Source of the DNA: a phage
NCBI GenBank assembly: GCA_012441205.1
Contig: GCA_012441205.1_4705.1
Direction: 5' to 3' (one strand)
DNA: 64,000 nt
Both the position numbers and the translations under genes were made by a program. Below the pieces are notes generated by a model. It was not told the origin of the DNA, did no database searches, and was given only the letters and a program-made list of their open reading frames with translations. Of this stretch, positions 501 through 57,590 are shown piece by piece. Each line of letters opens with the position of its first letter. The stretch's first letter is position 1.

Positions 501-537
501 ATTGTCTTAAATAGATGATAAGATATTTTGCTCTTAT

Positions 538-561
538 CACTAAGGTAATGTAGTCGCGAAA
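538..561 (-). promoter_or_regulatory. conserved promoter-like motif, copy 1 (TTTCGCGACTACATTACCTTAGTG on minus strand)
   Basis: 24-nt motif shared with 28742..28765 and 57488..57511, each 40-90 nt upstream of a minus-strand start. Confidence 0.45.
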
Positions 562-577
562 TAAACTGCGTTAACAC

Positions 578-12442: not shown

Positions 12443-12949
12443 TTACTCGCTGATAACCTCAACGGAATTGGGATCAGCGATCATCGCACGGTCAGTAGAA
12501 CAATTGAAGAAGACCATGCCGACACCATCGCCGTTCGAGTTCAGGGTTGAACTTACGTAAGACAGGGTTGGTTTATTCATGCGGTAGAAGCGTTCGCTGG
12601 TTGCGGTATTGAACCCCAGGTCAACGTAGTCTTTCACCGTGGTGTACAACTGTGTGGACTCGAAAACGGTTACCGGAGAGTCGACGGTAAATTGACTACC
12701 TTCGTCTACAACCAGAACTTTATCGTTCCAGATTTCAGTGGTTGAGAACTTCGGTTTCCAATGTTCGAATTCCTGGGTTGCACCCCAGCAAGAATACACA
12801 GCGAGATTGCTGTTCTTCTCAACAGGTTTCAACCCCACCAGTTGTGTCAGGTCTTTATCCAGGTTCGGTAAGCCTTCCAGCGTAGCACACCCACCCAGAG
12901 AAAGTACCATCAACATACCAAGAACGATCGCACAAAGTTTCTTCATCAT
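12443..12949 (-). CDS. lipoprotein (168 aa)
   Basis: signal peptide ending in lipobox LSLGGC; AAGGAAA SD; directly downstream of the long tail fibre gene. Confidence 0.65.
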   Translation of the reverse strand: MMKKLCAIVLGMLMVLSLGGCATLEGLPNLDKDLTQLVGLKPVEKNSNLAVYSCWGATQEFEHWKPKFSTTEIWNDKVLVVDEGSQFTVDSPVTVFESTQLYTTVKDYVDLGFNTATSERFYRMNKPTLSYVSSTLNSNGDGVGMVFFNCSTDRAMIADPNSVEVISE

Positions 12950-17248: not shown

Positions 17249-19003
17249 TTATGCTGCTACATATCCAGGCCAACGTTCTCTTGGCCAGTTTGTTGCGCCC
17301 TGTCCAACGTTGTCCTTACCAGAAATTACATTACTTACGTCCCAACCACTAAGATCCTGGTTAAATGCGGTGTTGTTACGCATCATGAGGTCGATATTAC
17401 GTAATGATTGGGTATTCCAGCCGGAAATGTCTTGGTTGAATGCCGTGTTGTAAGCAAACATGTTAACAACGTTTTGTAATTTTGAAGTGTTCCAGCCGCT
17501 AATATCGCCATTGAACTGCATGCTCGAGAACATACTGCTAGCATCGATAAGACTATCTGTTTTCCAGTTAACCAGCTTGTTTTCATCAAGTGCGTTGCAA
17601 CTACTGAACATGTAACTCATGTTGTTAACTTTGGATACATCCCATTTATCTAACCCGTTACCAACGAACTCGTAACAAGCTTGGAACATCCAGCTCATGT
17701 CGGTAACCTGGCTCACATTCCATTTGCTAAAGTCGAGGTTGAGTTTTGCGCATCCGGAGAAAGTTTTATACATACTGGTGATACGACTAACATCCCATTC
17801 TTGAATGTTAGGATCATTAAGTATAGATAAGAATTGGAACAATCCGTCTAACGACGTCCATTTCTCTGGAATACGGTTTGGTACTGTACGGAGCGATGAA
17901 AGGTTATTGGTTGACGGAGAGCGGAACATACCGTTATCCCAATTTACGATTTCCGTAATGTTGTACCCACGGATCGTTTGGCGTCCATTACCATTATACA
18001 CAGACCCTGTTGCAGTTATTGTATATTCGTTTGTATCAGCATACGTATGTTCAGCCTGTGTAGGCCACTCACCTATTACATCCCTATTCCCATCACCCCA
18101 ATCGATGGAAATATTTGTCCAACCATCAAGATCTAGGGTAACGGTCCCGCCATTGGTCTTCAGGATGTATTTACCTGCATTGTCGGTATAATAACAAACG
18201 ATCATCGCACCGTACAGGTTACCAATTTGCCAATCATCCTTTTGAGTTACCGCGATATGTGCTGTGCCACGTTGTAGGAAAAGAACCGTACGGTTCTCGT
18301 CAGTCTGTAATGTGGTTAATGCTTGAGCCTTATCATCGTCGGTAATTTCACCAGCTTCCACTAAAGCACTTAACATTCTTTCGAAGTATTCGATGGGTAA
18401 TTGGTGTCCTACAGACATATCAACTGATGGAACAGCGAGATCATCCAATGCGGCGGCAGTTGCAAGCACTAATGATCCATTGGTGGTGTCTGTTTCTTGG
18501 AGGTAATGCAGTCCCGTAATCTGGTACGCTTGAATGATTGTAATCAGATCCAGCGTATCGTTAATGACCTGTACTTGTAAATGTCCAGACCAAACATAGC
18601 TGCTTTCAGCAATCGGTAATTCGACCGACTGAATACCCGATGTTTCAAAACTGATCTTCTTATTAAGATCGGCTTCCAGGAAATCAACCGCGAGGTCGAA
18701 ATTTATACCGTACTTTTCAGCGATGGAATCTATGATGTTCCTGAAAGCAACATCGGTACTTACGATGAATCGTAAAGGGATTCCTGTGAACGCATTAGCA
18801 ATATCTCGACGAACATACGTAAGTGATTGTTCGAAGAAATAGGGACTGTTATCTCCAGGTTTGATGGTTACCTGACACATTTCAGGATGTTCAGCTGGGA
18901 TGAACGATTCAAATTTAACATCGGATTCCTTCAACGAAAGCATGTTCTTCCGGTTTACCAGCGCCAGAAGATCGGCTTTCCATCCAGGATAAACAGTAGA
19001 CAT
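17249..19003 (-). CDS. receptor-binding protein: N-terminal anchor domain, PKD-like motif and C-terminal BspA/DUF285-type repeats (about 584 aa)
   Basis: anchor alignment; ISIDWGDGN...HTYADTNEYTI; repeats WDVSxVTxMxxMFxxCxxFNxDISxW; start set at ATG 19003. Confidence 0.7.
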   Translation of the reverse strand: MSTVYPGWKADLLALVNRKNMLSLKESDVKFESFIPAEHPEMCQVTIKPGDNSPYFFEQSLTYVRRDIANAFTGIPLRFIVSTDVAFRNIIDSIAEKYGINFDLAVDFLEADLNKKISFETSGIQSVELPIAESSYVWSGHLQVQVINDTLDLITIIQAYQITGLHYLQETDTTNGSLVLATAAALDDLAVPSVDMSVGHQLPIEYFERMLSALVEAGEITDDDKAQALTTLQTDENRTVLFLQRGTAHIAVTQKDDWQIGNLYGAMIVCYYTDNAGKYILKTNGGTVTLDLDGWTNISIDWGDGNRDVIGEWPTQAEHTYADTNEYTITATGSVYNGNGRQTIRGYNITEIVNWDNGMFRSPSTNNLSSLRTVPNRIPEKWTSLDGLFQFLSILNDPNIQEWDVSRITSMYKTFSGCAKLNLDFSKWNVSQVTDMSWMFQACYEFVGNGLDKWDVSKVNNMSYMFSSCNALDENKLVNWKTDSLIDASSMFSSMQFNGDISGWNTSKLQNVVNMFAYNTAFNQDISGWNTQSLRNIDLMMRNNTAFNQDLSGWDVSNVISGKDNVGQGATNWPRERWPGYVAA

Positions 19004-22651: not shown

Positions 22652-23482
22652 TTAATCGTAACTAAAATAAAGTTTGCTGCTGACGCCGCTATCGGAATGA
22701 GGTTTTAACACCAGAACAGAGCTTCCGAACGACGGAAGTATTGGAACATCTAAATCGTTCGCATCGGCAACTTTTCCATTATAAACGACATTGGCTGTTG
22801 TGATGAGTTCCCAGGCTAAGGTATAACTCATTGAAATCAGCGACGAGGCTAAACGGAATGCATTGTATCCTTCTGGAGTATCTCCAACCGACATCGTACG
22901 TATCGCATCTTGCGGCGGTAAATTTAGCTTGATGCCGTAGGTGCTGAATGTGTGGAAATCCCCTTGTTTACTATCTTCTGGATAATACGAGGTTAGCGGT
23001 TCTCGCACCGTAATCAGTTCGCTAATATCGGTACTTACCGCTTTTCGGGCGAGGAATTGAAACGTACCGTACCACGATGCTGATGTATCAGAATGAACGG
23101 GAACAGCTATGGTTTTCTCGTCGCTTTCAAATTTAACCTGCGACACTAACGCTGAAGAATCAAAGATCGTTAAATCGATCTTCAACCCATACTTCTTAAA
23201 CAGCTGCGTTAAGCAGTCTGCTATCGTCGTCTTATCAGCAACGACAATAAAAGGTTGGTGTTTGATAAAGAGCTTATTAATGTCTCGACGTTGAAGATAA
23301 ACCTGTACGGGGTCTTCGATATAGTAAGCCGATTGTGGTGCGGGGACTATAGAAAGGCGTAACCGACCTGATGCACCATACCAGGCTGGCGTTAACGTAA
23401 CGTCTGACAGAGACAACGGGTGCTGGAGATAGGCGTTTATTTTAGATAACACTTCCTCCTGCCATGATGCTTCAGGATACAT
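22652..23482 (-). CDS. anchor-domain protein, divergent paralog (276 aa); first gene of the fibre operon
   Basis: W..EVL..IN...LSLSDVTL...YYIEDPVQVYLQRRDINKLF...YGLKIDL aligns with the conserved anchor domain; GAGG SD. Confidence 0.65.
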   Translation of the reverse strand: MYPEASWQEEVLSKINAYLQHPLSLSDVTLTPAWYGASGRLRLSIVPAPQSAYYIEDPVQVYLQRRDINKLFIKHQPFIVVADKTTIADCLTQLFKKYGLKIDLTIFDSSALVSQVKFESDEKTIAVPVHSDTSASWYGTFQFLARKAVSTDISELITVREPLTSYYPEDSKQGDFHTFSTYGIKLNLPPQDAIRTMSVGDTPEGYNAFRLASSLISMSYTLAWELITTANVVYNGKVADANDLDVPILPSFGSSVLVLKPHSDSGVSSKLYFSYD

Positions 23483-23540: not shown

Positions 23541-23606
23541 CAAAAAAAAAAAAAAAAACGAAAAAATAGGAAAACGGTGTTCATCCTTTTTAGGGATGAA
23601 CACCGC
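23541..23606 (-). terminator. intrinsic terminator after CDS 23626..24201
   Basis: 11-bp stem GGTGTTCATCC/GGATGAACACC followed on minus strand by a T-rich tract including T17. Confidence 0.6.
23542..23558. repeat. A17 homopolymer (T17 on minus strand)
   Basis: read directly. Confidence 0.9.
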
Positions 23607-23625: not shown

Positions 23626-24201
23626 TTAATGAGGAATCAGATCGTTAAGCTTTTCTTCTTCAATGACAAAGAAGTTGTTCTGGTCGTCTAAATCTGTTAA
23701 CAGGACTTGTCCGACAGTAAAGCACGTACCGCCCTTCTTAGGCACCCATACCGGCTCATTCGTTACCTTATCGGGATACCATTTGAAACGATTGGTATCC
23801 AAGAAGAACGCTGCTTTGTTTGCTTTATCGGTTGAACGATAGCTAACCAATGCAGGCCACTCAATCCAGGTGTTTGTGCATGGTACATGTAAAGGATACC
23901 ATGCGCGCCAGCGTTTGCCCGGACTGTTAGGATCAACCCAATACTCGGCAGTCAATACAGCATCTTTATAATGTTTCTGCATTAACATTTCGAGCACAAG
24001 CTCATTGCCTTTTGATGCGTCTAAAGTCACTTCCGTCATATAAAGAGATTTAGGTAATTCAGACTGTTTTGCGGGTGTTACAACACCGGTAACCAACGGT
24101 CTGCTCGGTTTACGTTTCTGTTCTTTCCGACGTGTGTAAAAGAATAGTCCGATAGATACAGCAACAAGTATAATAAACAACACTACCTTAATCCAATTCA
24201 T
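23626..24201 (-). CDS. membrane-anchored protein (191 aa)
   Basis: N-terminal TM helix WIKVVLFIILVAVSIGLFFY; GGAGA SD; ATGA overlap with upstream gene. Confidence 0.6.
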   Translation of the reverse strand: MNWIKVVLFIILVAVSIGLFFYTRRKEQKRKPSRPLVTGVVTPAKQSELPKSLYMTEVTLDASKGNELVLEMLMQKHYKDAVLTAEYWVDPNSPGKRWRAWYPLHVPCTNTWIEWPALVSYRSTDKANKAAFFLDTNRFKWYPDKVTNEPVWVPKKGGTCFTVGQVLLTDLDDQNNFFVIEEEKLNDLIPH

Positions 24202-24947
24202 TCGTCAATATCTCCTTCCACAAACAGAGTCAATTTGATTTCAGGATCATAGAACATGGTAATCACATCATCTTGCTCTACTGAACGCTGTGCTGTCCAT
24301 ATTAACTGTTCATCCCGAATATCAAATTTATGTCGTTCGTCACTCACCACAGCTTCCGCATCAACGTAATGGTAAACATCACCGAGAGGATTCTCAATCC
24401 AGCCGCGTACCATCAAACGTTCTTTTTGTTTACGTGTAAAGAAGCGATAGGGATCTTCGCACGTGCGCCATACGTCCCCCTTCTCGCTAACCAGTTCATC
24501 ATAAACTTTAGAGAGTTCGTCAGGCACCGGAATCAAAATGTTATCTTGATAGTTCGACCAGAAACGACGTACGTCTTGGATCAACTCATCGTCTGGGAGT
24601 TTAGTCGCTATGTTACTATAATCGATTTCAACAGTATCGATATCAAGACGGGTAAACGGAAGAGCGTCTAGGTTTCCCACCATGACCTCGATCTGATCAT
24701 GATGGACACGAATCCATCCATCGAACCATCTGTACCCATCAGCTTGATATAACGTTGTGTGATAAGTGACGACGTTAATATCCTCGAACGATTCTAATAA
24801 GGCTTTAGCGGCTAAAAGCGGTGAAAAGTTCTTCGATTGTCCTGGTTTACGTATTTCTTCTTTGATAAACAATTTACCGAGCAGTGGGTGTTCGATAACA
24901 AAACCACAGGAAAGCATGATGCTTCCTTGATAACGTGCTTCTTGCAT
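24198..24947 (-). CDS. hypothetical protein (249 aa)
   Basis: ORF with AAGGAAT SD. Confidence 0.6.
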   Translation of the reverse strand: MQEARYQGSIMLSCGFVIEHPLLGKLFIKEEIRKPGQSKNFSPLLAAKALLESFEDINVVTYHTTLYQADGYRWFDGWIRVHHDQIEVMVGNLDALPFTRLDIDTVEIDYSNIATKLPDDELIQDVRRFWSNYQDNILIPVPDELSKVYDELVSEKGDVWRTCEDPYRFFTRKQKERLMVRGWIENPLGDVYHYVDAEAVVSDERHKFDIRDEQLIWTAQRSVEQDDVITMFYDPEIKLTLFVEGDIDE

Positions 24948-25122
24948 TTTTTATTCCTTAAACAAAAGATTGTCTTTTACGCGACATGATTACAAGTACA
25001 CAGGTTACTGAATTTCTGTAAAAGTTAATTTTCGTAAACTAAAAGAAAATGTATCCGTGTTTCCTGGTTCTTCCCCTCCACAGCCTCAGGAAGAGAAGAA
25101 CCGTTTGCTAAGTTGTTATGTA

Positions 25123-25371
25123 TTAAAATGCATTGATTGGACTGTTCAACGCTTTATCACGGATTTGAATCGCCGCCAGCATTGCTTTCTGGTACGAATC
25201 GTAGGCATCGACAGAAACAGTCGTATCAACCAATTCCTTTAATGCGGATTCAGCCGCTTTTACACGGACGCGGAACTTGGTGATTGCGTTATCTTTGTTA
25301 CGATAAACCGTGATGTGGTGCAGCGGTTGAACTTTGGTTTTAACGGATTTAGTTGCTTTGATCGTTTTCAT
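25123..25371 (-). CDS. hypothetical protein (82 aa)
   Basis: ORF with AAGGAAA SD. Confidence 0.5.
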   Translation of the reverse strand: MKTIKATKSVKTKVQPLHHITVYRNKDNAITKFRVRVKAAESALKELVDTTVSVDAYDSYQKAMLAAIQIRDKALNSPINAF

Positions 25372-25464
25372 GATGATTTCCTTCTTTATTAGGATGATTA
25401 CATTTAGTCAGTTTAACAGCATAAGCCCTTCCCACCTTACGCAGGAAGGGCATACGGATTTGTT

Positions 25465-25962
25465 TTACGTGTGTCGTCGTTTACCAAAGAAAATGTGGCT
25501 ATCTACCACGGTGATATTGGTAGCATGTTTTCTGAAATGTTTAGGGCGAAGATGTTTCGCGTTAAAGAATACGGCTCCTCGTGTTGGGTCGGCTTTATGG
25601 TAAGCCGCAATGTCAGTATAACGTAATGTTGCGACCTCTCGTGCTATTGCTCTTGCTCGCTCAAAAGCAGCATGATCGCGTATGACAATACGCCTTTGTT
25701 TTGTCCAGGGGAATTGACCTCTTTGCAGTACGACGTCTCTGACGTTCGTAGGGAATCGGTAGTCCATAGATCGATTATGTATTAAAAACGCCACGGAGTA
25801 TTGCCCTTTTACAGATTCGCCTCTGGCTTCCATATACACAGCGCATGCGACGATCTCTTTCCGGCAATCGATTCTAGGTCCTGCGTTCACCGATGCTTGA
25901 CTGAACGGTGTGATAAGCAACATAACAAGCCCTAAAATCAACGTGTGTAAAATACCTTGCAT
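25465..25962 (-). CDS. secreted cell-wall hydrolase, SleB/CwlJ family (165 aa)
   Basis: signal peptide MQGILHTLILGLVMLLITPFSQA; AVYMEARGE...GQYSVAFLIHNR...FP...GQF matches the family signature. Confidence 0.6.
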   Translation of the reverse strand: MQGILHTLILGLVMLLITPFSQASVNAGPRIDCRKEIVACAVYMEARGESVKGQYSVAFLIHNRSMDYRFPTNVRDVVLQRGQFPWTKQRRIVIRDHAAFERARAIAREVATLRYTDIAAYHKADPTRGAVFFNAKHLRPKHFRKHATNITVVDSHIFFGKRRHT

Positions 25963-26215
25963 CTTAATAACCTCACGATAAGGTGCTGTCCACTGGCGTC
26001 TTGATAACGCATCCCGTCTATCGGGTTGTTCTATTCAGCGGGCAGCAGGTTAGCGTCAGATGTTTGCCCGACATCCACGACAGAAATAAACGGTACTGAA
26101 AATACGGTCTCCTCTGGTTTGGCAATAAACATAACGTTGGATAACAGAACCCATTTCCCGCATCCAACGCGGTAAAGGTGTACATCGTTTGAAGTCATAT
26201 AGTTTCTCAAAGATG

Positions 26216-26536
26216 TTAACCTCTACCGTCGAGCCATAGGTTGTATTTATCCCGAACATACGGCTCACGATAAATACGTCGATAGACTTGATGCGGTATA
26301 AACTTGCAATGTACGAGTTCGTCGCTTAATTTATGCCGTCGCTCCATACCGTTGTGAATACGACGTATCTCCCGGATATTAAAGGTTGTTTTATTCAAGA
26401 GAATAGACATAATGGCGGATCGATGATCCAGATTAAAGATCGCCATCACGCTTCGTATCTCGCGTAAAACAACTTCTCTATCGACAAGGATGCGATTAGT
26501 TAACTTAAGATTCTCCGTGATACCCATAACCTTCAT
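26216..26536 (-). CDS. hypothetical protein (about 106 aa; start uncertain)
   Basis: track ORF 26216..26620 overlaps the upstream gene; internal ATG with SD chosen. Confidence 0.35.
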   Translation of the reverse strand: MKVMGITENLKLTNRILVDREVVLREIRSVMAIFNLDHRSAIMSILLNKTTFNIREIRRIHNGMERRHKLSDELVHCKFIPHQVYRRIYREPYVRDKYNLWLDGRG

Positions 26537-26876
26537 CCTCGACACGTCGACACATCGGTAAAAATAAACACCAGCTTGTTGCACTGAGGACCGCCGTTGC
26601 GACGATATTTGCGATATCACTCAATCGAGCATCGGCTTGCCACATAACAAGCATGAAAAGAACGTACGCGAACCCATACACGACAAACCGTTTTATGTTA
26701 CGCGTCGACCATGTACAAATATACAAAAGGGGAAGCTGCCCTATAACACAAACGATGGTTCGGATAACGTAATAAACGCGTTCCGTCGTTGTTTCAAAAT
26801 CGATATTCGTTGCAGAAATCCCAATCATTATAAAAGTGAAAATGAAATAGATTTTTGCGTATGTCTTTAAACTCAT
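26505..26876 (-). CDS. integral membrane protein (123 aa, about 4 TM helices)
   Basis: hydrophobic segments; GGGAAAAG SD. Confidence 0.5.
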   Translation of the reverse strand: MSLKTYAKIYFIFTFIMIGISATNIDFETTTERVYYVIRTIVCVIGQLPLLYICTWSTRNIKRFVVYGFAYVLFMLVMWQADARLSDIANIVATAVLSATSWCLFLPMCRRVEDEGYGYHGES

Positions 26877-26892
26877 GGCTTTTCCCGATCGT

Positions 26893-27087
26893 TTATTTGT
26901 GTTTTCCTACATTCCTCAACAAGGTAACGATAACGAATACCGCTATCATCAAGAAGACGAACCATAACCCTACGTTAATTCGGGCAGCAGGTTCATCGAC
27001 CATGAAGAACATCATCCCACAAAACCCAATGACCATCCATGCTAGAACCATCCCCGTTAATCCCCGTAGTAGCATATGTCCCATCAT
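26893..27087 (-). CDS. small two-TM membrane protein, holin-like (about 64 aa)
   Basis: two hydrophobic helices and basic C-terminus; track ORF starts at TTG 27126, ATG at 27087 chosen. Confidence 0.4.
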   Translation of the reverse strand: MMGHMLLRGLTGMVLAWMVIGFCGMMFFMVDEPAARINVGLWFVFLMIAVFVIVTLLRNVGKHK

Positions 27088-27260
27088 GAACTCATTCTTA
27101 CTTTTTCTGATAAAGCGATGATTCAAATTTTAGAAACATCACTAACGCGAATGCGAGTAATAACGCACGTACCCACATACCTCCTTGACAACTGTTGTAC
27201 AACATAAAGACCAGAGCGATGCCGCCCATATGCAGGCGGCACTTATCGAACAGTGTTGGT

Positions 27261-27470
27261 TTATACATAAGAGATCAATCGTTGAATGATTTTTACTTTG
27301 CCTTTGCCTGGACCTTTCTTGCGGCGATTCAACAGACGGATACTGTTTCCAGTTACGGTGTCGCCATCATAATCAGCCCGGAACTGTGATAAAAAAGCAG
27401 GTTGTATCTGATCGACACCAGGATTGCTGTGGAAAGGATTGAGACTTAAAAGAGGGTTAGCTGGAATCAT
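27261..27470 (-). CDS. hypothetical small protein (69 aa)
   Basis: track ORF starts at TTG; ATG at 27470 with AAGGA SD. Confidence 0.4.
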   Translation of the reverse strand: MIPANPLLSLNPFHSNPGVDQIQPAFLSQFRADYDGDTVTGNSIRLLNRRKKGPGKGKVKIIQRLISYV

Positions 27471-27488
27471 CGTATTGTCCTTACTCAA

Positions 27489-27839
27489 TTATTTACCCAG
27501 ATAGAGATATTCAGCGCCCTGAACAACGCCGGTTGTTGGATCAACCAGTACGCGAACCCGTGCGTAGGTCTTGAAAGAGGGATTGAAAACTTCGAAGTCG
27601 GCCACTTTCAATTTCACGCTGGGATTGATAGGGTTCTTAACTCCTGGAAGTTCTTTCGGTAATCCGAAGTCGACTCCATATTCTTCAAGGTCTGCTGGCG
27701 TCATGCTCTCCATGGCCATGTAGACCGCTTTTGCTTTATCGTAAACTTCCGGGCTATCCAACAATCCAGCCTGCGCTGAACCGACAACACTACCGAACAG
27801 AATAGCAACAGCAACAAACAATTTAGTTAACGTTTTCAT
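27489..27839 (-). CDS. secreted protein (116 aa)
   Basis: signal peptide MKTLTKLFVAVAILFGSVVGSAQA. Confidence 0.55.
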   Translation of the reverse strand: MKTLTKLFVAVAILFGSVVGSAQAGLLDSPEVYDKAKAVYMAMESMTPADLEEYGVDFGLPKELPGVKNPINPSVKLKVADFEVFNPSFKTYARVRVLVDPTTGVVQGAEYLYLGK

Positions 27840-27877
27840 GATCGTTTCCTTAATAACTTAAATAAACCAATTTAGTA

Positions 27878-28300
27878 TTAACGTACGGCCGCTACACTGT
27901 TAGCGCATGCCTGAATATCATCGGTATTTACGATGATGGTTTCGTTAAACGCACGAATACGCGCACGACGTGCTTCTTTAAGGCTGGCGATTGCGTTAGC
28001 AGCTTGATCTGTATTCGCAAGGCTAATAACTGGGATCAAGCGCATGTCCGGACTGCAGATATTCAATGCCTGGTATACACGTCCATTGATTCCTACGGTA
28101 TCAGACATCGGATAGTGCGCACGGCATTGAAATTGACCCATGACAACAAGCGAACGATCTGAGATACCAATCTGATAACGACCATCTTCACTGTAGGCGT
28201 AGCAGTTATTCCCACGAGCCATCCAGTTAGCCTGTGCTTGCGTGCTAACAAAAGCCAGGGTGGTGACGATAGCGAATACGATATTTTTGAACAGTTTCAT
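27878..28300 (-). CDS. secreted cysteine-containing protein (140 aa)
   Basis: signal peptide MKLFKNIVFAIVTTLAFVSTQAQA; start set at ATG 28300 with AAGGA SD. Confidence 0.55.
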   Translation of the reverse strand: MKLFKNIVFAIVTTLAFVSTQAQANWMARGNNCYAYSEDGRYQIGISDRSLVVMGQFQCRAHYPMSDTVGINGRVYQALNICSPDMRLIPVISLANTDQAANAIASLKEARRARIRAFNETIIVNTDDIQACANSVAAVR

Positions 28301-28358
28301 GATAAAGATCCTTATTGAAATAAAATCGGTATAAAGGCCCCCATTTAGGGGGACCTGA

Positions 28359-28676
28359 TTAGTTTGCACGTAAGAAATGACCTAGAACCGTTACAATTGG
28401 AAACAGTCCTGTAACCGTATTATCACCAGAAAACATCATCTTTGAGTCGTTAACGGTGATGAAACGGATGTCGGTTGCGGATCCGTCGATAGCGACAAAA
28501 CGCATTGAGTTCGGTGGAAGATCCTCAACAACTTCCACGAGGTGTTCACGATTTTCAAAGGCTTCTTTAACACGACGCATGAAACGAATCAATGTTCCTT
28601 CAGCGTCGGCTTCCAAATGACCTAAGATATCGCGATTATTGCGAATAGCGAATACAGACATTTTAAACATACACAT
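28359..28676 (-). CDS. hypothetical protein (105 aa)
   Basis: ORF preceded by conserved leader and promoter-like motif. Confidence 0.5.
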   Translation of the reverse strand: MCMFKMSVFAIRNNRDILGHLEADAEGTLIRFMRRVKEAFENREHLVEVVEDLPPNSMRFVAIDGSATDIRFITVNDSKMMFSGDNTVTGLFPIVTVLGHFLRAN

Positions 28677-28707
28677 CTTGACATCCTCTTATATTGGATT
28701 GATTGCT
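28677..28707 (-). promoter_or_regulatory. conserved 5' leader / translation-initiation region, copy 2
   Basis: near-identical to 470..500. Confidence 0.45.
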
Positions 28708-28741
28708 AATAATTCAAGGTGAAGCTGATTACTGCATTGCT

Positions 28742-28765
28742 TCACCTAGGTAATATAGCCGTGAA
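28742..28765 (-). promoter_or_regulatory. conserved promoter-like motif, copy 2 (TTTCACGGCTATATTACCTAGGTG on minus strand)
   Basis: matches copies at 538..561 and 57488..57511; followed by an 8-bp hairpin. Confidence 0.45.
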
Positions 28766-28784
28766 AATTAATGCATTAATTTAT

Positions 28785-29738
28785 TCACGACTTCGCCATG
28801 TAGGGTTGAATCGCATGGAAGCGTTTAACCACAACTTCAGGAAAAAGTTTGATGATTTCATCAGGCGGTGCTGCACCTTCTGTCCAACGATAGCGTTCAA
28901 CCTTCTCGATGCGTGGACTCCCTCCGACGTCAGCGATACGAAAGATACAGGCGATGCCTAAATCAAAACACACGCTGTAAATATCTTCCGTGCCTCCTTT
29001 ATCAGCAAGTATTTTCGCAAAATGCTCGTTATCAGGAAGAATGGCTAAATTACGTATACGCCAAACATTATTACCCATTTCTTCAAGGATTGGGTATGTT
29101 AAAGTGTGTCCGTGTCGTGTTAACCATCGATGATTTTCGAGGTAGAAGTCCTTATCCCCTGGCCGGTAACCCATAATCACTCCCGTGTAGAAGAGATTGG
29201 GCATATCGAGCAGTTCTTGAATCGTTGGGCCGGTATACTCCCAGAGACAGATTTGTTTGCGGTCTATATCGTAATCTGTAACGTTACTCACCTCCCAACT
29301 TATCGTAAGTTCGTCGATAACATGCCAACCTAAAGTGTGTTCGCAACAAAATAGATTAACAATGGCTGATATCTCATACTTGTCAAATACCCCCAAATTA
29401 CACGGTGGTTGCATCGTACGTAACGGCTCCCATAACGCACTGTAATCATAGAGCAAGTGCCGACACAAACTTTTTGTTAGTGGTGTCTGTTCAGTAAACA
29501 GTGGAAGAATCACCTTATCCAATAACAGACGTAACGGATGGTCGTCTGGTGGTAGAGGAGCAACTAGACGACCTCCTTCTTTAGGGTAATCAGGGCCAAA
29601 CCCGTAACGCTCCGAAATGAGTGCAATCAACACTTTTGCTACGCGATTACGTAGCATGCGATGGATATCATCACTGTAACTGAATTTCGGTTTATTTCCG
29701 CAAACGAAGGTGAAGTATCTAGGTGATAGCTTAACCAT
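28785..29738 (-). CDS. hypothetical protein (about 317 aa)
   Basis: start set at ATG 29738 with AAGGA SD (track ORF extends to 29810, overlapping the upstream gene). Confidence 0.6.
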   Translation of the reverse strand: MVKLSPRYFTFVCGNKPKFSYSDDIHRMLRNRVAKVLIALISERYGFGPDYPKEGGRLVAPLPPDDHPLRLLLDKVILPLFTEQTPLTKSLCRHLLYDYSALWEPLRTMQPPCNLGVFDKYEISAIVNLFCCEHTLGWHVIDELTISWEVSNVTDYDIDRKQICLWEYTGPTIQELLDMPNLFYTGVIMGYRPGDKDFYLENHRWLTRHGHTLTYPILEEMGNNVWRIRNLAILPDNEHFAKILADKGGTEDIYSVCFDLGIACIFRIADVGGSPRIEKVERYRWTEGAAPPDEIIKLFPEVVVKRFHAIQPYMAKS

Positions 29739-29748
29739 AATCTTTTCC

Positions 29749-30195
29749 TTAATCCAAATAGTACGTGATGGATAGGTCTTTTCCATTGAATACAATATCC
29801 GTACAGTCATGGATCGTCGGTAATACCATTTTGGCGGCTATCGGAACATACGCCTGCAACTCCATGAAGTTATCCATACGGAATGCACGACGCACCATCA
29901 ACGGTGTTAGTGTAAACGTTACGCTGACGTTACCGCCCGGAGTCAAGTGCATTATCGCATGCCCATGATCGCACCAACAATGGTTTTCGATCCATCCAGT
30001 GTAAATCAGAATATTTTTATCCTCATCGTAATAAGCAATGCCAGTCTGCTTTAAACGGCTGGTAAATCGAGAGGCCTGCTCATAGCCCGCACGCAACATT
30101 CGAGCAACCAGGCGAGTGTTGTTAGCGATTCGATTCTGTTCGTTGGTTTTTGTGGTTTTGAAAAGTTCGATACGTTCTGCTTTTGTAATTTGCAT
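29749..30195 (-). CDS. hypothetical protein (148 aa)
   Basis: ORF. Confidence 0.55.
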   Translation of the reverse strand: MQITKAERIELFKTTKTNEQNRIANNTRLVARMLRAGYEQASRFTSRLKQTGIAYYDEDKNILIYTGWIENHCWCDHGHAIMHLTPGGNVSVTFTLTPLMVRRAFRMDNFMELQAYVPIAAKMVLPTIHDCTDIVFNGKDLSITYYLD

Positions 30196-31954: not shown

Positions 31955-32605
31955 TTATTCATGACGAGTATCTTCCAAATCATCCCTTTGTTTTGTAAAT
32001 TCTGATTGCTTGCGATAAACCGTCCACGAATCGTATATGCCGTGAAAGTTCAAATGACGTGCATTTAAGTTAACGGTGAATTCTTCCACAGAGGAGAAAT
32101 CCGAACGAAGCATCGAATGGAAGGCGTCATCTCCGGTGCAGCCCCCGTATCCCTCACCCTGATAGATCAAAAGCTGATGTGGTTGAATACGCGCGGCAAC
32201 CAGCGCAGCTTGTGGTTCGCAGTAAGGCGGCCACGACAGTAAAATAACATCGTACTGTGAAAGATCGATGTTCGTGTAGTCGACCTGCTGAATGTCCTCG
32301 ATAAACGGGTGGGGATGTAATTCCGTATCGTAGGCGGTAACGTCCTCAACACCAAGTTTACGTAGTACATAAGTCAGGTAACCTGTCCCACAACCCAAAT
32401 CAGCGACACGTCGCCCGTAACAGATATTCGCTAACTGGAGCGCGGTATCCATGGTTAACAACGACCATCCAATGTGCTGGGTACATTCTTCACGCACACT
32501 CCATTGTTGATGGTACGTCATGGGTTCTATGATACTAGCAAGCTGCTGGTACGGCAATGGCATTCTGGTTTCGCCTTGCGTGAGTAATGCAATAACGTTG
32601 TTCAT
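31955..32605 (-). CDS. SAM-dependent methyltransferase-like protein (216 aa)
   Basis: motif I-like VADLGCGTGYLT and SWPPY resembling the (S/N/D)PPY amino-methyltransferase motif; substrate unknown. Confidence 0.4.
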   Translation of the reverse strand: MNNVIALLTQGETRMPLPYQQLASIIEPMTYHQQWSVREECTQHIGWSLLTMDTALQLANICYGRRVADLGCGTGYLTYVLRKLGVEDVTAYDTELHPHPFIEDIQQVDYTNIDLSQYDVILLSWPPYCEPQAALVAARIQPHQLLIYQGEGYGGCTGDDAFHSMLRSDFSSVEEFTVNLNARHLNFHGIYDSWTVYRKQSEFTKQRDDLEDTRHE

Positions 32606-32631
32606 TTTGTTTCCTTTTTTATCAGCATAAA

Positions 32632-36024: not shown

Positions 36025-38688
<2,664 letters not shown>

Positions 38689-38795
38689 GTTGTCGTTTCC
38701 TCCATACGAAACCAAAAAATTGTCAAAATGTACATCGGCATAACGCCCGTGCCCGCCCGTGATGGGAGGGACACAGGCAATACGCTTTTATTTCA

Positions 38796-42746: not shown

Positions 42747-42979
42747 CGCATCTTATTCCGCGCTTGTTTCCTTAACATGGACACATTCCGCATCGATAGT
42801 CACACCGGTAGAACGATGGGTCTCGTTGGTAGAATCAAATCCGCTGTTGAACAACACTGCGAATGTGTTATTATCCATACGAGCAAAGGTCTCCGCAATA
42901 CGATCGGGATGAAAATCAGTGCGGCTGATGGTCGATTTCACAAAAACTCCTATAAACAATTTAATTATTGGTATTAAGA

Positions 42980-43465
42980 TTAAAGCAGGATCTGCGGACA
43001 GCAGCATGATTCGTAACCACCTTCATGTGGTAACGTATTGCTGGTGTCAGGCCAAACGAGCTGAATACCCGCAACCTTTTTACCATATCGAGCGAAAGCC
43101 GCTATCGCATACACTTCGTTGAAGGATTCAATATCCTCTATTTCACGCACGTCAAGACGCAAGGTTTCACCCGTACCTTTCAGAGTTAGATTGCCATCGA
43201 ACGCGCCTAACGGGATGGTCTTTGCCTTCACCATGAAGTTACCCAGTTTGTTGATTGCTGAACCGAGAGCAGGGCAATAACCGGATACGAAGATTTCCGG
43301 CATTCCGTGTTCGGTTAGACCAACAGTATACATAAAGCCAGGCTCGTCGCTTCCCTCATCAGGAGCGACACTGATAATAGCCCATTGCTTTTTCTCGATA
43401 TATTCTTCGATAAAATCGTCCAGTTTTGAAAAATTGTTTTCATTAAGTTTAACTGTGTTACTCAT
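42980..43465 (-). CDS. hypothetical protein (161 aa)
   Basis: ORF with AAAGGA SD. Confidence 0.55.
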   Translation of the reverse strand: MSNTVKLNENNFSKLDDFIEEYIEKKQWAIISVAPDEGSDEPGFMYTVGLTEHGMPEIFVSGYCPALGSAINKLGNFMVKAKTIPLGAFDGNLTLKGTGETLRLDVREIEDIESFNEVYAIAAFARYGKKVAGIQLVWPDTSNTLPHEGGYESCCCPQILL

Positions 43466-57446: not shown

Positions 57447-57487
57447 TGCACGTACCTCTTTGAATCTATTAATAAATTTTCTTTACT

Positions 57488-57511
57488 CACGTAAGTAATA
57501 TAGCCGTGAAA
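57488..57511 (-). promoter_or_regulatory. conserved promoter-like motif, copy 3 (TTTCACGGCTATATTACTTACGTG on minus strand)
   Basis: 22 of 24 nt identical to copy 2; 42-65 nt upstream of the HD-domain gene start. Confidence 0.4.
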
Positions 57512-57590
57512 GGATTTGTGTTGGTCCGTTTCGATACCCATCGTATTTTATGGATTGTCGAATGACGTCATTTTAAGGGACATCCCCGGC

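Follow-up and report, generated by a model that had tools for sequence, protein, structure and literature searches.

A conserved, structured RNA leader precedes the gene for a predicted exported SleB-type hydrolase within an envelope-gene cluster of Goslar-like jumbo phages

Introduction

Phage enzymes that degrade the cell wall and are exported before lysis are known from the pairs of signal-anchor-release (SAR) endolysin and pinholin (phage 21 R/S, P1 Lyz) and from Oenococcus phage fOg44, whose endolysin Lys44 carries a signal peptide. A different form of control is that of the T4 lysozyme gene e, whose ribosome-binding site (RBS) is reportedly sequestered by a hairpin in early read-through transcripts, a result ascribed to McPheeters et al. 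in 1986. Exported endolysins and leaders that sequester the Shine-Dalgarno sequence (SD) are the known themes underlying the locus described here. It consists of the gene for a SleB-type hydrolase, a structured RNA leader in front of it and a surrounding cluster of genes for membrane and predicted periplasmic proteins, and it lies in a 64,000-nucleotide stretch of phage DNA (NCBI GenBank assembly GCA_012441205.1, contig GCA_012441205.1_4705.1), referred to below as the window.

Lysis by nucleus-forming jumbo phages has been resolved only recently, for phiKZ. There, the cassette gp141/141.1/142/143/144 encodes an i-spanin, an o-spanin, a class III holin, a regulator and an endolysin (Manohar et al. 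2026, PMC12894885). The sole match in a megablast search with window positions 24000..30000 was Escherichia phage vB_EcoM_Goslar, a nucleus-forming jumbo phage of E. coli (237 kb), at 94% DNA identity. Five open reading frames (ORFs) that an initial reading of the letters alone (the sequence-only reading) had named, and had taken for either a lysis cassette or a set of periplasmic host-modifying proteins, were confirmed at their positions, every one on the minus strand. They are orthologs of Goslar gp098, gp100, gp101, gp103 and gp104, and gene order and strand are as in Goslar. Within Goslar gp098-gp104 (MK327938 / NC_048170), the hydrolase ortholog gp098 is 98.8% identical to that of the window and is labeled 'putative cell wall hydrolase' / 'endolysin' in GenBank/RefSeq ('endolysin' being the RefSeq label). 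The Goslar records annotate neither the leader nor a 56-amino-acid (aa) membrane gene of the cluster, and all accessory genes are listed as 'hypothetical protein'.

Results

A SleB-type hydrolase with an intact catalytic motif and a predicted signal peptide

25465..25962, minus strand: gene for a SleB-type (Hydrolase_2) peptidoglycan hydrolase, predicted to be exported, the ortholog of Goslar gp098 (Pfam, PHROG, PDB and AlphaFold2 (AF2) evidence)

The SleB/CwlJ-family cell-wall hydrolase recognized by the sequence-only reading was recovered by the Pfam profile Hydrolase_2 (PF07486; E 3.7e-16, 60 bits against a cut-off of 27), with residues 48-159 spanning profile positions 1-100 of 100, and the protein also matched PHROG 938, 'endolysin'. 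Its only sequence matches in the PDB were the catalytic domains of Bacillus SleB, 4F55 and 4FET, in which YGESRGE aligns with Y43-M-E45-A-R-G-E49 of the hydrolase (YxEARGE). The catalytic Glu45 is intact. Y43, E45, R47, G48 and E49 are invariant in 8 diverged phage homologs, and the catalytic motif is also invariant in 13. An AF2 model based on 13 homologs reached a pLDDT of 83.7, and Foldseek returned 4FET and 4F55 as its only PDB matches (probability 1.00, target-normalised TM-score 0.70-0.76). Both structures are described as a germination-specific lytic transglycosylase, and from sequence and model the phage hydrolase is probably a lytic transglycosylase as well. It is not SleB proper: the NCBIfam model TIGR02869 gave 41.5 bits against a threshold of 236.5 and was covered only at positions 88-199, the C-terminal catalytic half, and Pfam detected no N-terminal PG_binding domain of the SleB kind.

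Signal peptides and transmembrane (TM) segments were called with Kyte-Doolittle (KD) windows and the -3/-1 rule. The secretion signal proposed by the sequence-only reading was found as a hydrophobic N-terminal core followed by an S-Q-A site. The predicted signal peptide comprises residues 1-23, MQGILHTLILGLVMLLITPFSQA, with the -3/-1 site at its end and SV as the next residues. Its hydrophobic segment, GILHTLILGLVMLLITPF, is rich in Leu and Ile (KD 1.97) and is followed by SQA/S, where the slash marks the predicted cleavage site; the n-region of the Goslar-type enzyme contains no Lys or Arg, which is a caveat on this call. A hydrophobic N-terminus and an AXA site are present in all homologs inspected, namely those of the Goslar-like genomes, of four diverged contigs (L028-L031) and of phages Arash, UPEC06 and DevonBitter, with cleavage sites such as AQA/K, VQA/S, VLA/S and TYA/K. 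The Leu/Ile-rich N-terminus and the AXA site in all homologs are therefore read as a cleaved Sec signal peptide and not as a SAR anchor. On inspection of the sequence, the hydrolase shows no uncleaved, weakly hydrophobic TM domain rich in Gly, Ala and Ser of the kind that defines SAR endolysins. We thus read the hydrolase as a protein predicted to be exported by Sec with signal-peptide cleavage. The pair Cys33/Cys40, just N-terminal of the catalytic Glu and conserved in the jumbo-phage lineages and in Arash, fits a predicted periplasmic location.

A structured leader is predicted to occlude the SD of the hydrolase gene

25963..26215, minus strand: structured RNA leader of 253 nucleotides (nt), between the gp099 homolog and the ATG of the hydrolase gene (conservation, covariation, fold energy)

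A first leader alignment comprised the window, Goslar and a 241-kb metagenomic relative. No other part of the 5.6-kb cluster is as conserved as the leader, which has 0-1 variable columns per 60 nt as against 5-10 in the genes; in an alignment of 12 Goslar-like genomes, variation is limited to about 12 of 256 columns. The leader is composed of a hairpin H1 with an apical AAUGG, a single-stranded block UUGCCAAACC, a hairpin H3 with the loop CGGGCAA and a long helix H4, in whose base the SD, GAGG, is located. Compared with shuffled sequences, its fold energy has a z-score of -2.55 for the whole leader and -2.86 for the 3' half.

The diverged contigs L028-L031 retain a leader of 265-280 nt in front of hydrolases that are 45-50% identical to that of the window. 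Five blocks are invariant between these contigs and the Goslar-like genomes (TATGAC, TTGCCAAACC, CGGGCAA, CTGACGCTAACCTG and CACCTTATCGTGAGG), and independent folding of each lineage yielded one shared architecture. The stems of H1 differ among lineages around a retained apical AAUGG, and H3 has four stem sequences, each of them perfectly paired, below the constant loop CGGGCAA. In the aligned 3' half of the leader, 98.4% of cells are paired, a value that falls to 26-42% when the partners are slid by 1-3 columns. Two-sided changes were found at 7 pairs of this half, compared with 3.5 +/- 1.0 in column shuffles (0/500 reached the observed count). The leader is a conserved, multi-helix RNA that is predicted to occlude the SD.

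In the predicted folds, the SD is paired in the long-range helix H4 and likewise in a competing local hairpin (ACCUUA/UGAGGU), so that it is hidden in either. A pseudoknot is possible, since the single-stranded block contains UUGCC and the H3 loop its complement, GGCAA. An alternative pairing, CUGAC/GUCGG, which appeared when the 3' half was folded alone, received no support from the diverged lineages and was set aside.

A covariance model of the leader found exactly one copy per genome, scoring 140 bits on the sense strand and 16 bits on the antisense strand. With the same model, no copy was detected at the SleB loci of three other phages (Arash, UPEC06, DevonBitter), at the phiKZ lysis region or anywhere else in Goslar. 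Rfam release 15 contains no matching family (best hit mir-7147, 14 bits, E 7), and a search for tRNA genes found none. The leader is not protein-coding, to judge from its sequence: a 55-aa ORF inside it, listed as a gene in one metagenome annotation, loses its stop codon through a 1-nt loop indel in half of the genomes, and substitutions fall mainly at first and second codon positions. No promoter motif was found inside the leader. The TATGAC(A) at its 5' end was considered as a late promoter and rejected, TATGACA occurring at 16 mostly intragenic sites in Goslar where about 29 are expected.

Transcription signals and boundaries of the unit

28740..28779, minus strand: promoter-like motif TTCACGGC-TATATTAC-CTAGGTGA of the chmA (early) type (position weight matrix, 51 bits)
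25425..25451, minus strand: GC-rich hairpin (-20.9 kcal/mol) followed by TTATGCTG, directly 3' of the hydrolase stop codon
23574..23606, minus strand: strong intrinsic terminator with a 13-bp stem and a T-rich tail, after the gp094 homolog

The core of the promoter-like motif, TATATTAC, emerged from de novo k-mer enrichment in Goslar upstream regions. Extended to about 30 nt (TTCACGGC-TA(T/C)ATTAC-YTNNGTGA), it has about 13 strong copies in Goslar, including one upstream of chmA, all on the gene strand and nearly all 30-125 nt before a start codon. The window holds three copies of the form TTCACG(G/A)C-TA(T/C)ATTAC-YTNNGTGA, at 28740..28779, 57485..57524 and 535..574, all on the minus strand; the first, a perfect copy at 28757, lies 74 nt upstream of the gp105 homolog, the first gene of the unit. 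The ~30-nt motif is probably an early (virion RNA polymerase) promoter of this phage group. Its octamer is presumably also the early consensus of phiKZ; a literature search for the promoter string returned nothing relevant. In Goslar infection, chmA is transcribed by 5 min post infection (10.1101/2023.09.20.558163). A scan for sigma-70 promoters gave fewer sites than in shuffled sequence and thus no information, in line with a phage that brings its own RNA polymerases.

The hairpin behind the hydrolase gene belongs to a class (hairpin plus TTTATGCYG) that recurs in the window at ~32600..32631 and ~38710..38743, on the minus strand, and upstream of many Goslar genes. Some Goslar members of the class, hairpin plus (T)TTATGC(C/T)G, are annotated as terminators; the element may be a terminator, a promoter or both. 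The intrinsic terminator at 23574..23606 divides the unit from the DUF7941 tail-protein genes, the next gene (22652..23482) encoding a DUF7941 protein. From the positions of the promoter motif, the hairpin and the terminator, the unit therefore runs from 28757 to 23574, with the hydrolase closing its first part.

On the far side of this terminator, the DUF7941 genes (22652..23482 and downstream) are only 28-72% identical, or replaced, in genomes that are otherwise 90-95% identical (L012, L019, L024). This suggests exchange of a host-range module beside the conserved envelope genes.

Accessory genes of the unit

28359..28676, minus strand: gp105 homolog, 105 aa, soluble, first gene of the unit, with an SD (ORF, 93% identical to Goslar)
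27878..28300, minus strand: SP2 (gp104), 140 aa, predicted periplasmic, signal sequence with AQA/N, four Cys in the mature part
27489..27839, minus strand: SP1 (gp103), 116 aa, predicted periplasmic, signal sequence with AQA/G
27261..27470, minus strand: gp102 homolog, 69 aa, soluble, basic, motif KKGPGKGKVK
27098..27268, minus strand: orf56, small membrane protein of 56 aa with 1-2 hydrophobic segments, unannotated in both Goslar records (hydropathy, conservation)
26893..27087, minus strand: two-TM inner-membrane protein (gp101), 64 aa, predicted N-in/C-in, basic C-terminus (hydropathy)
26505..26876, minus strand: four-TM membrane protein (gp100), 123 aa (hydropathy)
26216..26527, minus strand: gp099 homolog, 103 aa, soluble, basic, directly upstream of the leader (56-97% identity)
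25123..25371, minus strand: gp097 homolog, 82 aa, soluble (ORF)
24198..24947, minus strand: gp095 homolog, 249 aa, soluble, its stop overlapping the next start (ATGA), conserved in L028 (phmmer 8e-15)
23626..24201, minus strand: gp094 homolog, 191 aa, N-terminal TM segment (hydropathy 2.65) followed by RRKEQKRK, last gene of the unit

Hydropathy reproduced the membrane proteins of the sequence-only reading, with four peaks in 26505..26876 and two in 26893..27087, the latter protein being holin-like in size and topology. Its two further signal-peptide proteins held up to different degrees: SP1 has a hydrophobic start and an AQA/G site, whereas SP2 has an AQA/N site but a hydropathy slightly below the threshold. 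Two envelope genes of the same unit had been overlooked, the 56-aa ORF at 27098..27268 and the N-terminal-TM protein at 23626..24201. Among the ~97 ORFs of the window, 7 of about 10 envelope-type genes fall in 13 consecutive genes (hypergeometric p 1.3e-5). Across the Goslar genome, the corresponding value is 8e-7, or 2e-4 once corrected for position. The clustering of envelope genes is therefore non-random. The genes of the cluster are each intact and under purifying selection across 3-12 related genomes, and together they make up an envelope module that is conserved among the nucleus-forming jumbo phages of the Goslar type.

Of the small membrane proteins of the cluster, orf56 is the best conserved: it is intact in all 10 or more Goslar-like genomes (82-98% identity), and a homolog occupies the corresponding place in the diverged contig L028 (8978..9178; phmmer 2.5e-12, BLASTP 8.5e-13). 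Its ATG overlaps the 3' end of gp102, and the sequence suggests that the two are probably translationally coupled. The two-TM gp101 homolog is 80-100% conserved in Goslar-like genomes; at the same position, L028 encodes a two-TM protein without sequence similarity to it. A multi-Met 'dual-start' (MMGHM) of the two-TM protein is not conserved in L017 and was not used as evidence. The four-TM gene carries 45 non-synonymous and 24 synonymous changes, is missing in L017 and L022 and is only 47-48% identical in L021 and L023; by these sequence comparisons it is a variable, fast-evolving and dispensable member of the cluster. The gp105 homolog shows 45 synonymous and 24 non-synonymous codon changes relative to Goslar.

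For the soluble proteins, the K/R-G-P-G-K-G-K motif of the gp102 homolog is also present in three tandem paralogs directly before the leader in L028 (10517..11506), and nucleic-acid binding by these GPGKGK-motif proteins is possible. The only database match of the gp099 homolog was a weak one to a CaiF regulator model (E 0.02), and the gp095 homolog matched no family. Between the gp097 and gp095 homologs, gp096 (166 aa) is present in Goslar and missing from the window, at 24948..25122. It is also missing from L022, L024 and L025 and present in other Goslar-like contigs, a presence/absence polymorphism.

The synteny of the module is kept in the deeply diverged jumbo-phage contigs L028 and L029. 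In L028, as in the window, the order runs from an acetyltransferase ... to a fused protein (below), a two-TM protein, the 56-aa homolog, another two-TM protein, the basic proteins, the leader and the hydrolase, after which follow ..., the gp095 homolog, a protein with an N-terminal TM domain and a DUF7941 tail protein. The N-terminal-TM protein, a positional analog of gp094, stands after the gp095 homolog in both contigs.

A split periplasmic protein and the case for exclusion

In tblastn searches against 50,697 phage records, SP1, SP2 and the four-TM protein matched only Goslar. Exhaustive HMMER searches with SP2 found two proteins of 230-234 aa whose N-terminal half matches SP2 (E 4.5e-8), and BLASTP aligned SP1 with the C-terminal half of the fused protein P0005 (residues 154-220; E 8e-5). 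The fused proteins are encoded as follows.

L028, 8001..8693: fused SP2-SP1 protein
L027, 8001..8705: fused SP2-SP1 protein

SP2 and SP1 match opposite halves of the fused proteins, and the two genes are therefore the split form of one periplasmic protein. Of the fused copies, one belongs to the diverged phage contig L028; the other is carried by a genomic island of a bacterium, with antirestriction, RadC, DUF932 and CbtA/CbeA genes as neighbors and no hydrolase nearby. Structure prediction for SP2 was uninformative (AF2 pLDDT 60.5; no Foldseek match at E <= 0.001, TM-score <= 0.32). Neither the accessory proteins nor P0005 gave a match of informative strength in Pfam, PHROGs, NCBIfam or PADLOC, including the T4 Imm/Sp-type exclusion families.

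These proteins raise the question of superinfection exclusion. T4 has two proteins of this kind: Imm, which is small and sits in the inner membrane, and Sp, which acts in the periplasm to inhibit the incoming tail lysozyme. By analogy with this pair, the unit could be an early envelope-protection or exclusion module, in which SP2/SP1 and the small membrane proteins would block the entry of further phages or neutralise muralytic enzymes, perhaps including the phage's own hydrolase. An early-type promoter at the head of the unit, two predicted periplasmic proteins and several very small inner-membrane proteins agree with such a role, and the fused copy on a bacterial island without a hydrolase suggests a self-standing periplasmic function useful to mobile elements. 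The early-type promoter also fits the reading of these genes as periplasmic host-modifying proteins, as far as the sequence goes. However, the proteins resemble no exclusion or defence family in the four databases, the SP2 prediction is too poor for structural comparison, and exclusion would leave unexplained a tightly regulated muralytic enzyme that is constant in both diverged lineages. We consider an exclusion module quite unlikely.

Lysis genes elsewhere in Goslar and the case for a complete cassette

The sequence-only reading had allowed for a canonical endolysin and holin elsewhere in the genome. The endolysin is there in Goslar, whereas a canonical holin was found nowhere in it. Goslar gp024 (17700..18335 in Goslar, 90 kb from the hydrolase) has complete GH108 and PG_binding_3 domains with an EGGY motif, matches PHROG 315 'endolysin' (E 3.6e-40), and has a hydrophilic N-terminus and no signal sequence. 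As predicted from sequence, this architecture is the usual one for a holin-dependent cytoplasmic endolysin. Goslar gp232, a virion protein of 2252 aa, contains a lysozyme-type domain. No holin or spanin is annotated in the whole Goslar annotation, and no canonical holin was recognized there; because of this, the two-TM and 56-aa genes remain holin candidates. The two-TM (64 aa), 1-2-TM (56 aa) and four-TM (123 aa) proteins of the cluster match no holin family. When phiKZ gp139-144 were searched by tblastn against the window and the whole of Goslar, only gp139, a structural protein, matched. Homology to the phiKZ lysis cassette was rejected on this basis, gp141-144 having no detectable homologs in either. 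Our literature search found no paper on Goslar lysis.

For spanins, a lipobox scan of all ORFs, nested ones included, found none in 22-30 kb of the window. The only lipoprotein detected was at window 12443..12949, corresponding to gp088 in the Goslar genome.

Three further genes outside the cluster were recorded in the course of this survey. The lipoprotein gene at 12443..12949 (minus strand; MKKLCAIVLGMLMVLSLGGC..., 167 aa, gp088 homolog) directly follows a tail-fibre assembly gene; gp88 is present at >200 copies per virion by mass spectrometry (2026 preprint), which is odd for a lipoprotein, and a receptor-masking role like that of T5 Llp is conceivable. A 94-aa two-TM protein at 38404..38688 (minus strand; gp122) and an 84-aa protein with an N-terminal TM segment at 42753..43007 (minus strand; gp130) are additional holin-type candidates.

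Homologs of the hydrolase were found by tblastn in 1035 phage records, mostly of large virulent enterobacterial phages. In Salmonella phage Arash, rV5-like UPEC06 and T5-like DevonBitter, the neighborhood consists of small early-type and DNA-metabolism genes, and in UPEC06 a 70-aa two-TM ORF overlaps the end of the SleB-like gene. In phage CB7, the SleB-like protein CB7_83 has a signal peptide and is toxic when expressed, and the same paper describes a candidate class II holin overlapping the SleB-like gene, another peptidoglycan hydrolase and, separately, an Rz/Rz1 pair (PMC7344957). Carriers of the enzyme among the T5-like and rV5-like phages have separate lysozyme/holin or spanin genes (PMC3326045, PMC7344957), and the enzyme therefore accompanies, rather than replaces, the canonical lysis system there.

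Could the cluster nevertheless be a true lysis cassette, as the sequence-only reading suggested first? The hydrolase would then be a SleB-like endolysin, and the two-TM or the 56-aa protein a pinholin that depolarises the membrane and so activates the exported enzyme. The remaining membrane and periplasmic proteins would be antiholin, lysis-inhibition factors or spanin substitutes, and gp024 a tail-associated entry enzyme. The hydrolase family, the export signal and the holin-like two-TM protein of that proposal stood up, and both RefSeq (for the Goslar ortholog) and PHROG 938 use the name 'endolysin'. The two-TM protein is conserved and has class II holin size and topology, a two-TM ORF overlaps the end of the SleB-like gene in Vequintavirinae (PMC7344957), and no other holin candidate was recognized in Goslar. 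That gp024 closes the tail-fibre operon would suit an entry enzyme, the phiKZ lysis cassette likewise adjoins tail genes (PMC12894885), and a leader that hides the SD would suit a gene needing silence until late.

The proposal is weakened by a chmA-type promoter at the head of the unit, by the lack of any spanin or lipoprotein in or near the cluster, and by the full soluble-endolysin architecture (GH108 and PG_binding_3) of gp024. The T5-like and rV5-like phages that encode homologous exported hydrolases have separate lysis genes alongside them (PMC3326045, PMC7344957). The two-TM proteins of the different lineages share no sequence similarity, and phiKZ gp141-144 have no homologs here. By its gene content, the module is not a complete canonical lysis cassette of the Gram-negative type, because it has no spanins, and we regard a true cassette built on a pinholin as unlikely.

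Discussion

A proposed post-transcriptionally gated wall enzyme

The explanation that we tentatively prefer, at a confidence just short of even, is that the module provides a post-transcriptionally gated, holin-independent auxiliary lysin or wall-remodelling enzyme, together with membrane and periplasmic factors for timing or protection. A Sec-exported, signal-cleaved muralytic enzyme of the SleB type would need no holin to reach the wall. Premature production of such an enzyme is dangerous, and for this reason its synthesis would be gated after transcription. The 253-nt leader, by pairing the SD, would make translation dependent on a hypothetical opener, which could be a phage protein, a processing event or another signal; we infer translational gating of the hydrolase from this arrangement. 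From the chmA-type promoter, the unit would also produce the split periplasmic pair and the small membrane proteins (two-TM, 56-aa and the optional four-TM protein). Late in infection the hydrolase may weaken or remodel the sacculus, as an auxiliary to the cytoplasmic GH108 endolysin, and the small membrane and periplasmic proteins may time its action or protect against it. The timing, the lytic or remodelling role and all accessory-protein roles are thus proposed rather than observed.

Several points weigh against this explanation. As the last gene of a tail-fibre operon, gp024 could be a virion enzyme, in which case the hydrolase would be the sole endolysin; moreover, gp024 was read from the Goslar genome, the corresponding region falling outside the window. 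About 4 independent lineages contribute to the covariation counts, and the SD-pairing part of H4 is invariant in sequence, its support coming from conservation and energy. The label 'early' for the unit derives from the motif shared with chmA and from the presumed early consensus of phiKZ. Muralytic activity on E. coli peptidoglycan is a prediction from sequence and model, and Bacillus SleB requires muramic-delta-lactam.

A more specific variant of remodelling would tie the enzyme to the phage nucleus, limited and regulated glycan cleavage letting the cell swell around the nucleus and the virion bouquets. A 'characteristic cell envelope bulging' has been described for cells infected with Goslar (10.1101/2023.09.20.558163, legend of Extended Data Fig. 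6), and a holin-independent export as predicted from sequence, post-transcriptional control by the modeled leader and the existence of a separate endolysin candidate would all be compatible with it. The tie to bulging is purely circumstantial, and homologs occur in about 1000 phage records from phages without a nucleus, including T5-like and rV5-like ones. We think this variant very unlikely.

Returning to the gated auxiliary enzyme, the leader might do more than delay its synthesis. It could represent a new class of cis-regulatory RNA that serves as a lysis clock, or as part of one, in a nucleus-forming phage, an idea that we find attractive but doubtful. The leader would hold the hydrolase mRNA untranslatable until a specific late signal opens it. 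Such a signal might be an RNA-binding protein (the basic GPGKGK-motif proteins or gp099), a processing event or a small molecule, and it would be sensed by the invariant loops CGGGCAA and AAUGG and the block UUGCCAAACC, possibly via the pseudoknot. If this were true, Goslar-like phages would time wall degradation by translation, instead of or besides a holin.

Public databases already carry the annotation of the hydrolase. Judged by the literature searched and by Rfam, the view of the genes as a module, the 56-aa gene, the split and fused periplasmic protein and, above all, the structured leader are new. Goslar lacks a homolog of any phiKZ lysis protein. For this model phage of E. coli, the locus provides as candidates a muralytic enzyme with a predicted export signal, small membrane proteins (three, of which one had escaped annotation), a periplasmic protein in two parts and an RNA element that shows covariation and is not in Rfam. 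Since the exported SleB-like family occurs in about 1000 phage genomes, a phenotype established in Goslar would carry over widely. A conserved RNA that hides an RBS would, if the gating holds, be a compact and transferable control element for toxic lysins.

Comparison with known systems

Compared with Bacillus SleB (PDB 4FET, 4F55; PF07486), the window hydrolase has the same catalytic motif with its Glu and the same predicted fold. It differs in having a predicted Sec signal peptide, a Gram-negative host and no N-terminal peptidoglycan-binding domain. The exported SleB-like enzymes of other phages (Certrevirus CB7_83/CR3_087, UPEC06, T5-like AKFV33 ORF81 and Sugarlandvirus, Arash gp62c) combine a signal peptide with Hydrolase_2 at 30-46% identity. 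Unlike the window module, their genes lie among DNA-metabolism genes, and SP1, SP2 and the 56-aa protein have no homologs in these phages.

Both phiKZ and the Goslar-type phages are chimalliviruses. In phiKZ, the lysis genes are clustered beside tail-fibre genes and include an enzyme of the lytic-transglycosylase type. The phiKZ cassette contains spanins, a class III holin and a soluble endolysin without a signal, none of which is present in the window cluster.

The SAR endolysin and pinholin pairs and Lys44 share with the window a muralytic enzyme that is exported by Sec before lysis, as predicted here, with a small two-TM protein as its partner, in the window a putative one. The window hydrolase departs from the SAR type in its Leu/Ile-rich N-terminus with an AXA cleavage site, where SAR sequences are Gly/Ala-rich and uncleaved, and in its catalytic family.

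With respect to control, the T4 lysozyme gene e is the nearest parallel: as in the window, a gene for a wall enzyme follows an early promoter and has its ribosome-binding site buried in RNA structure. The hairpin of T4 is short and local, and late promoters that lie within it provide a way around it. The window leader, in contrast, extends over about 250 nt and combines multiple helices that covary with loops that do not change; no late promoter was identified within it.

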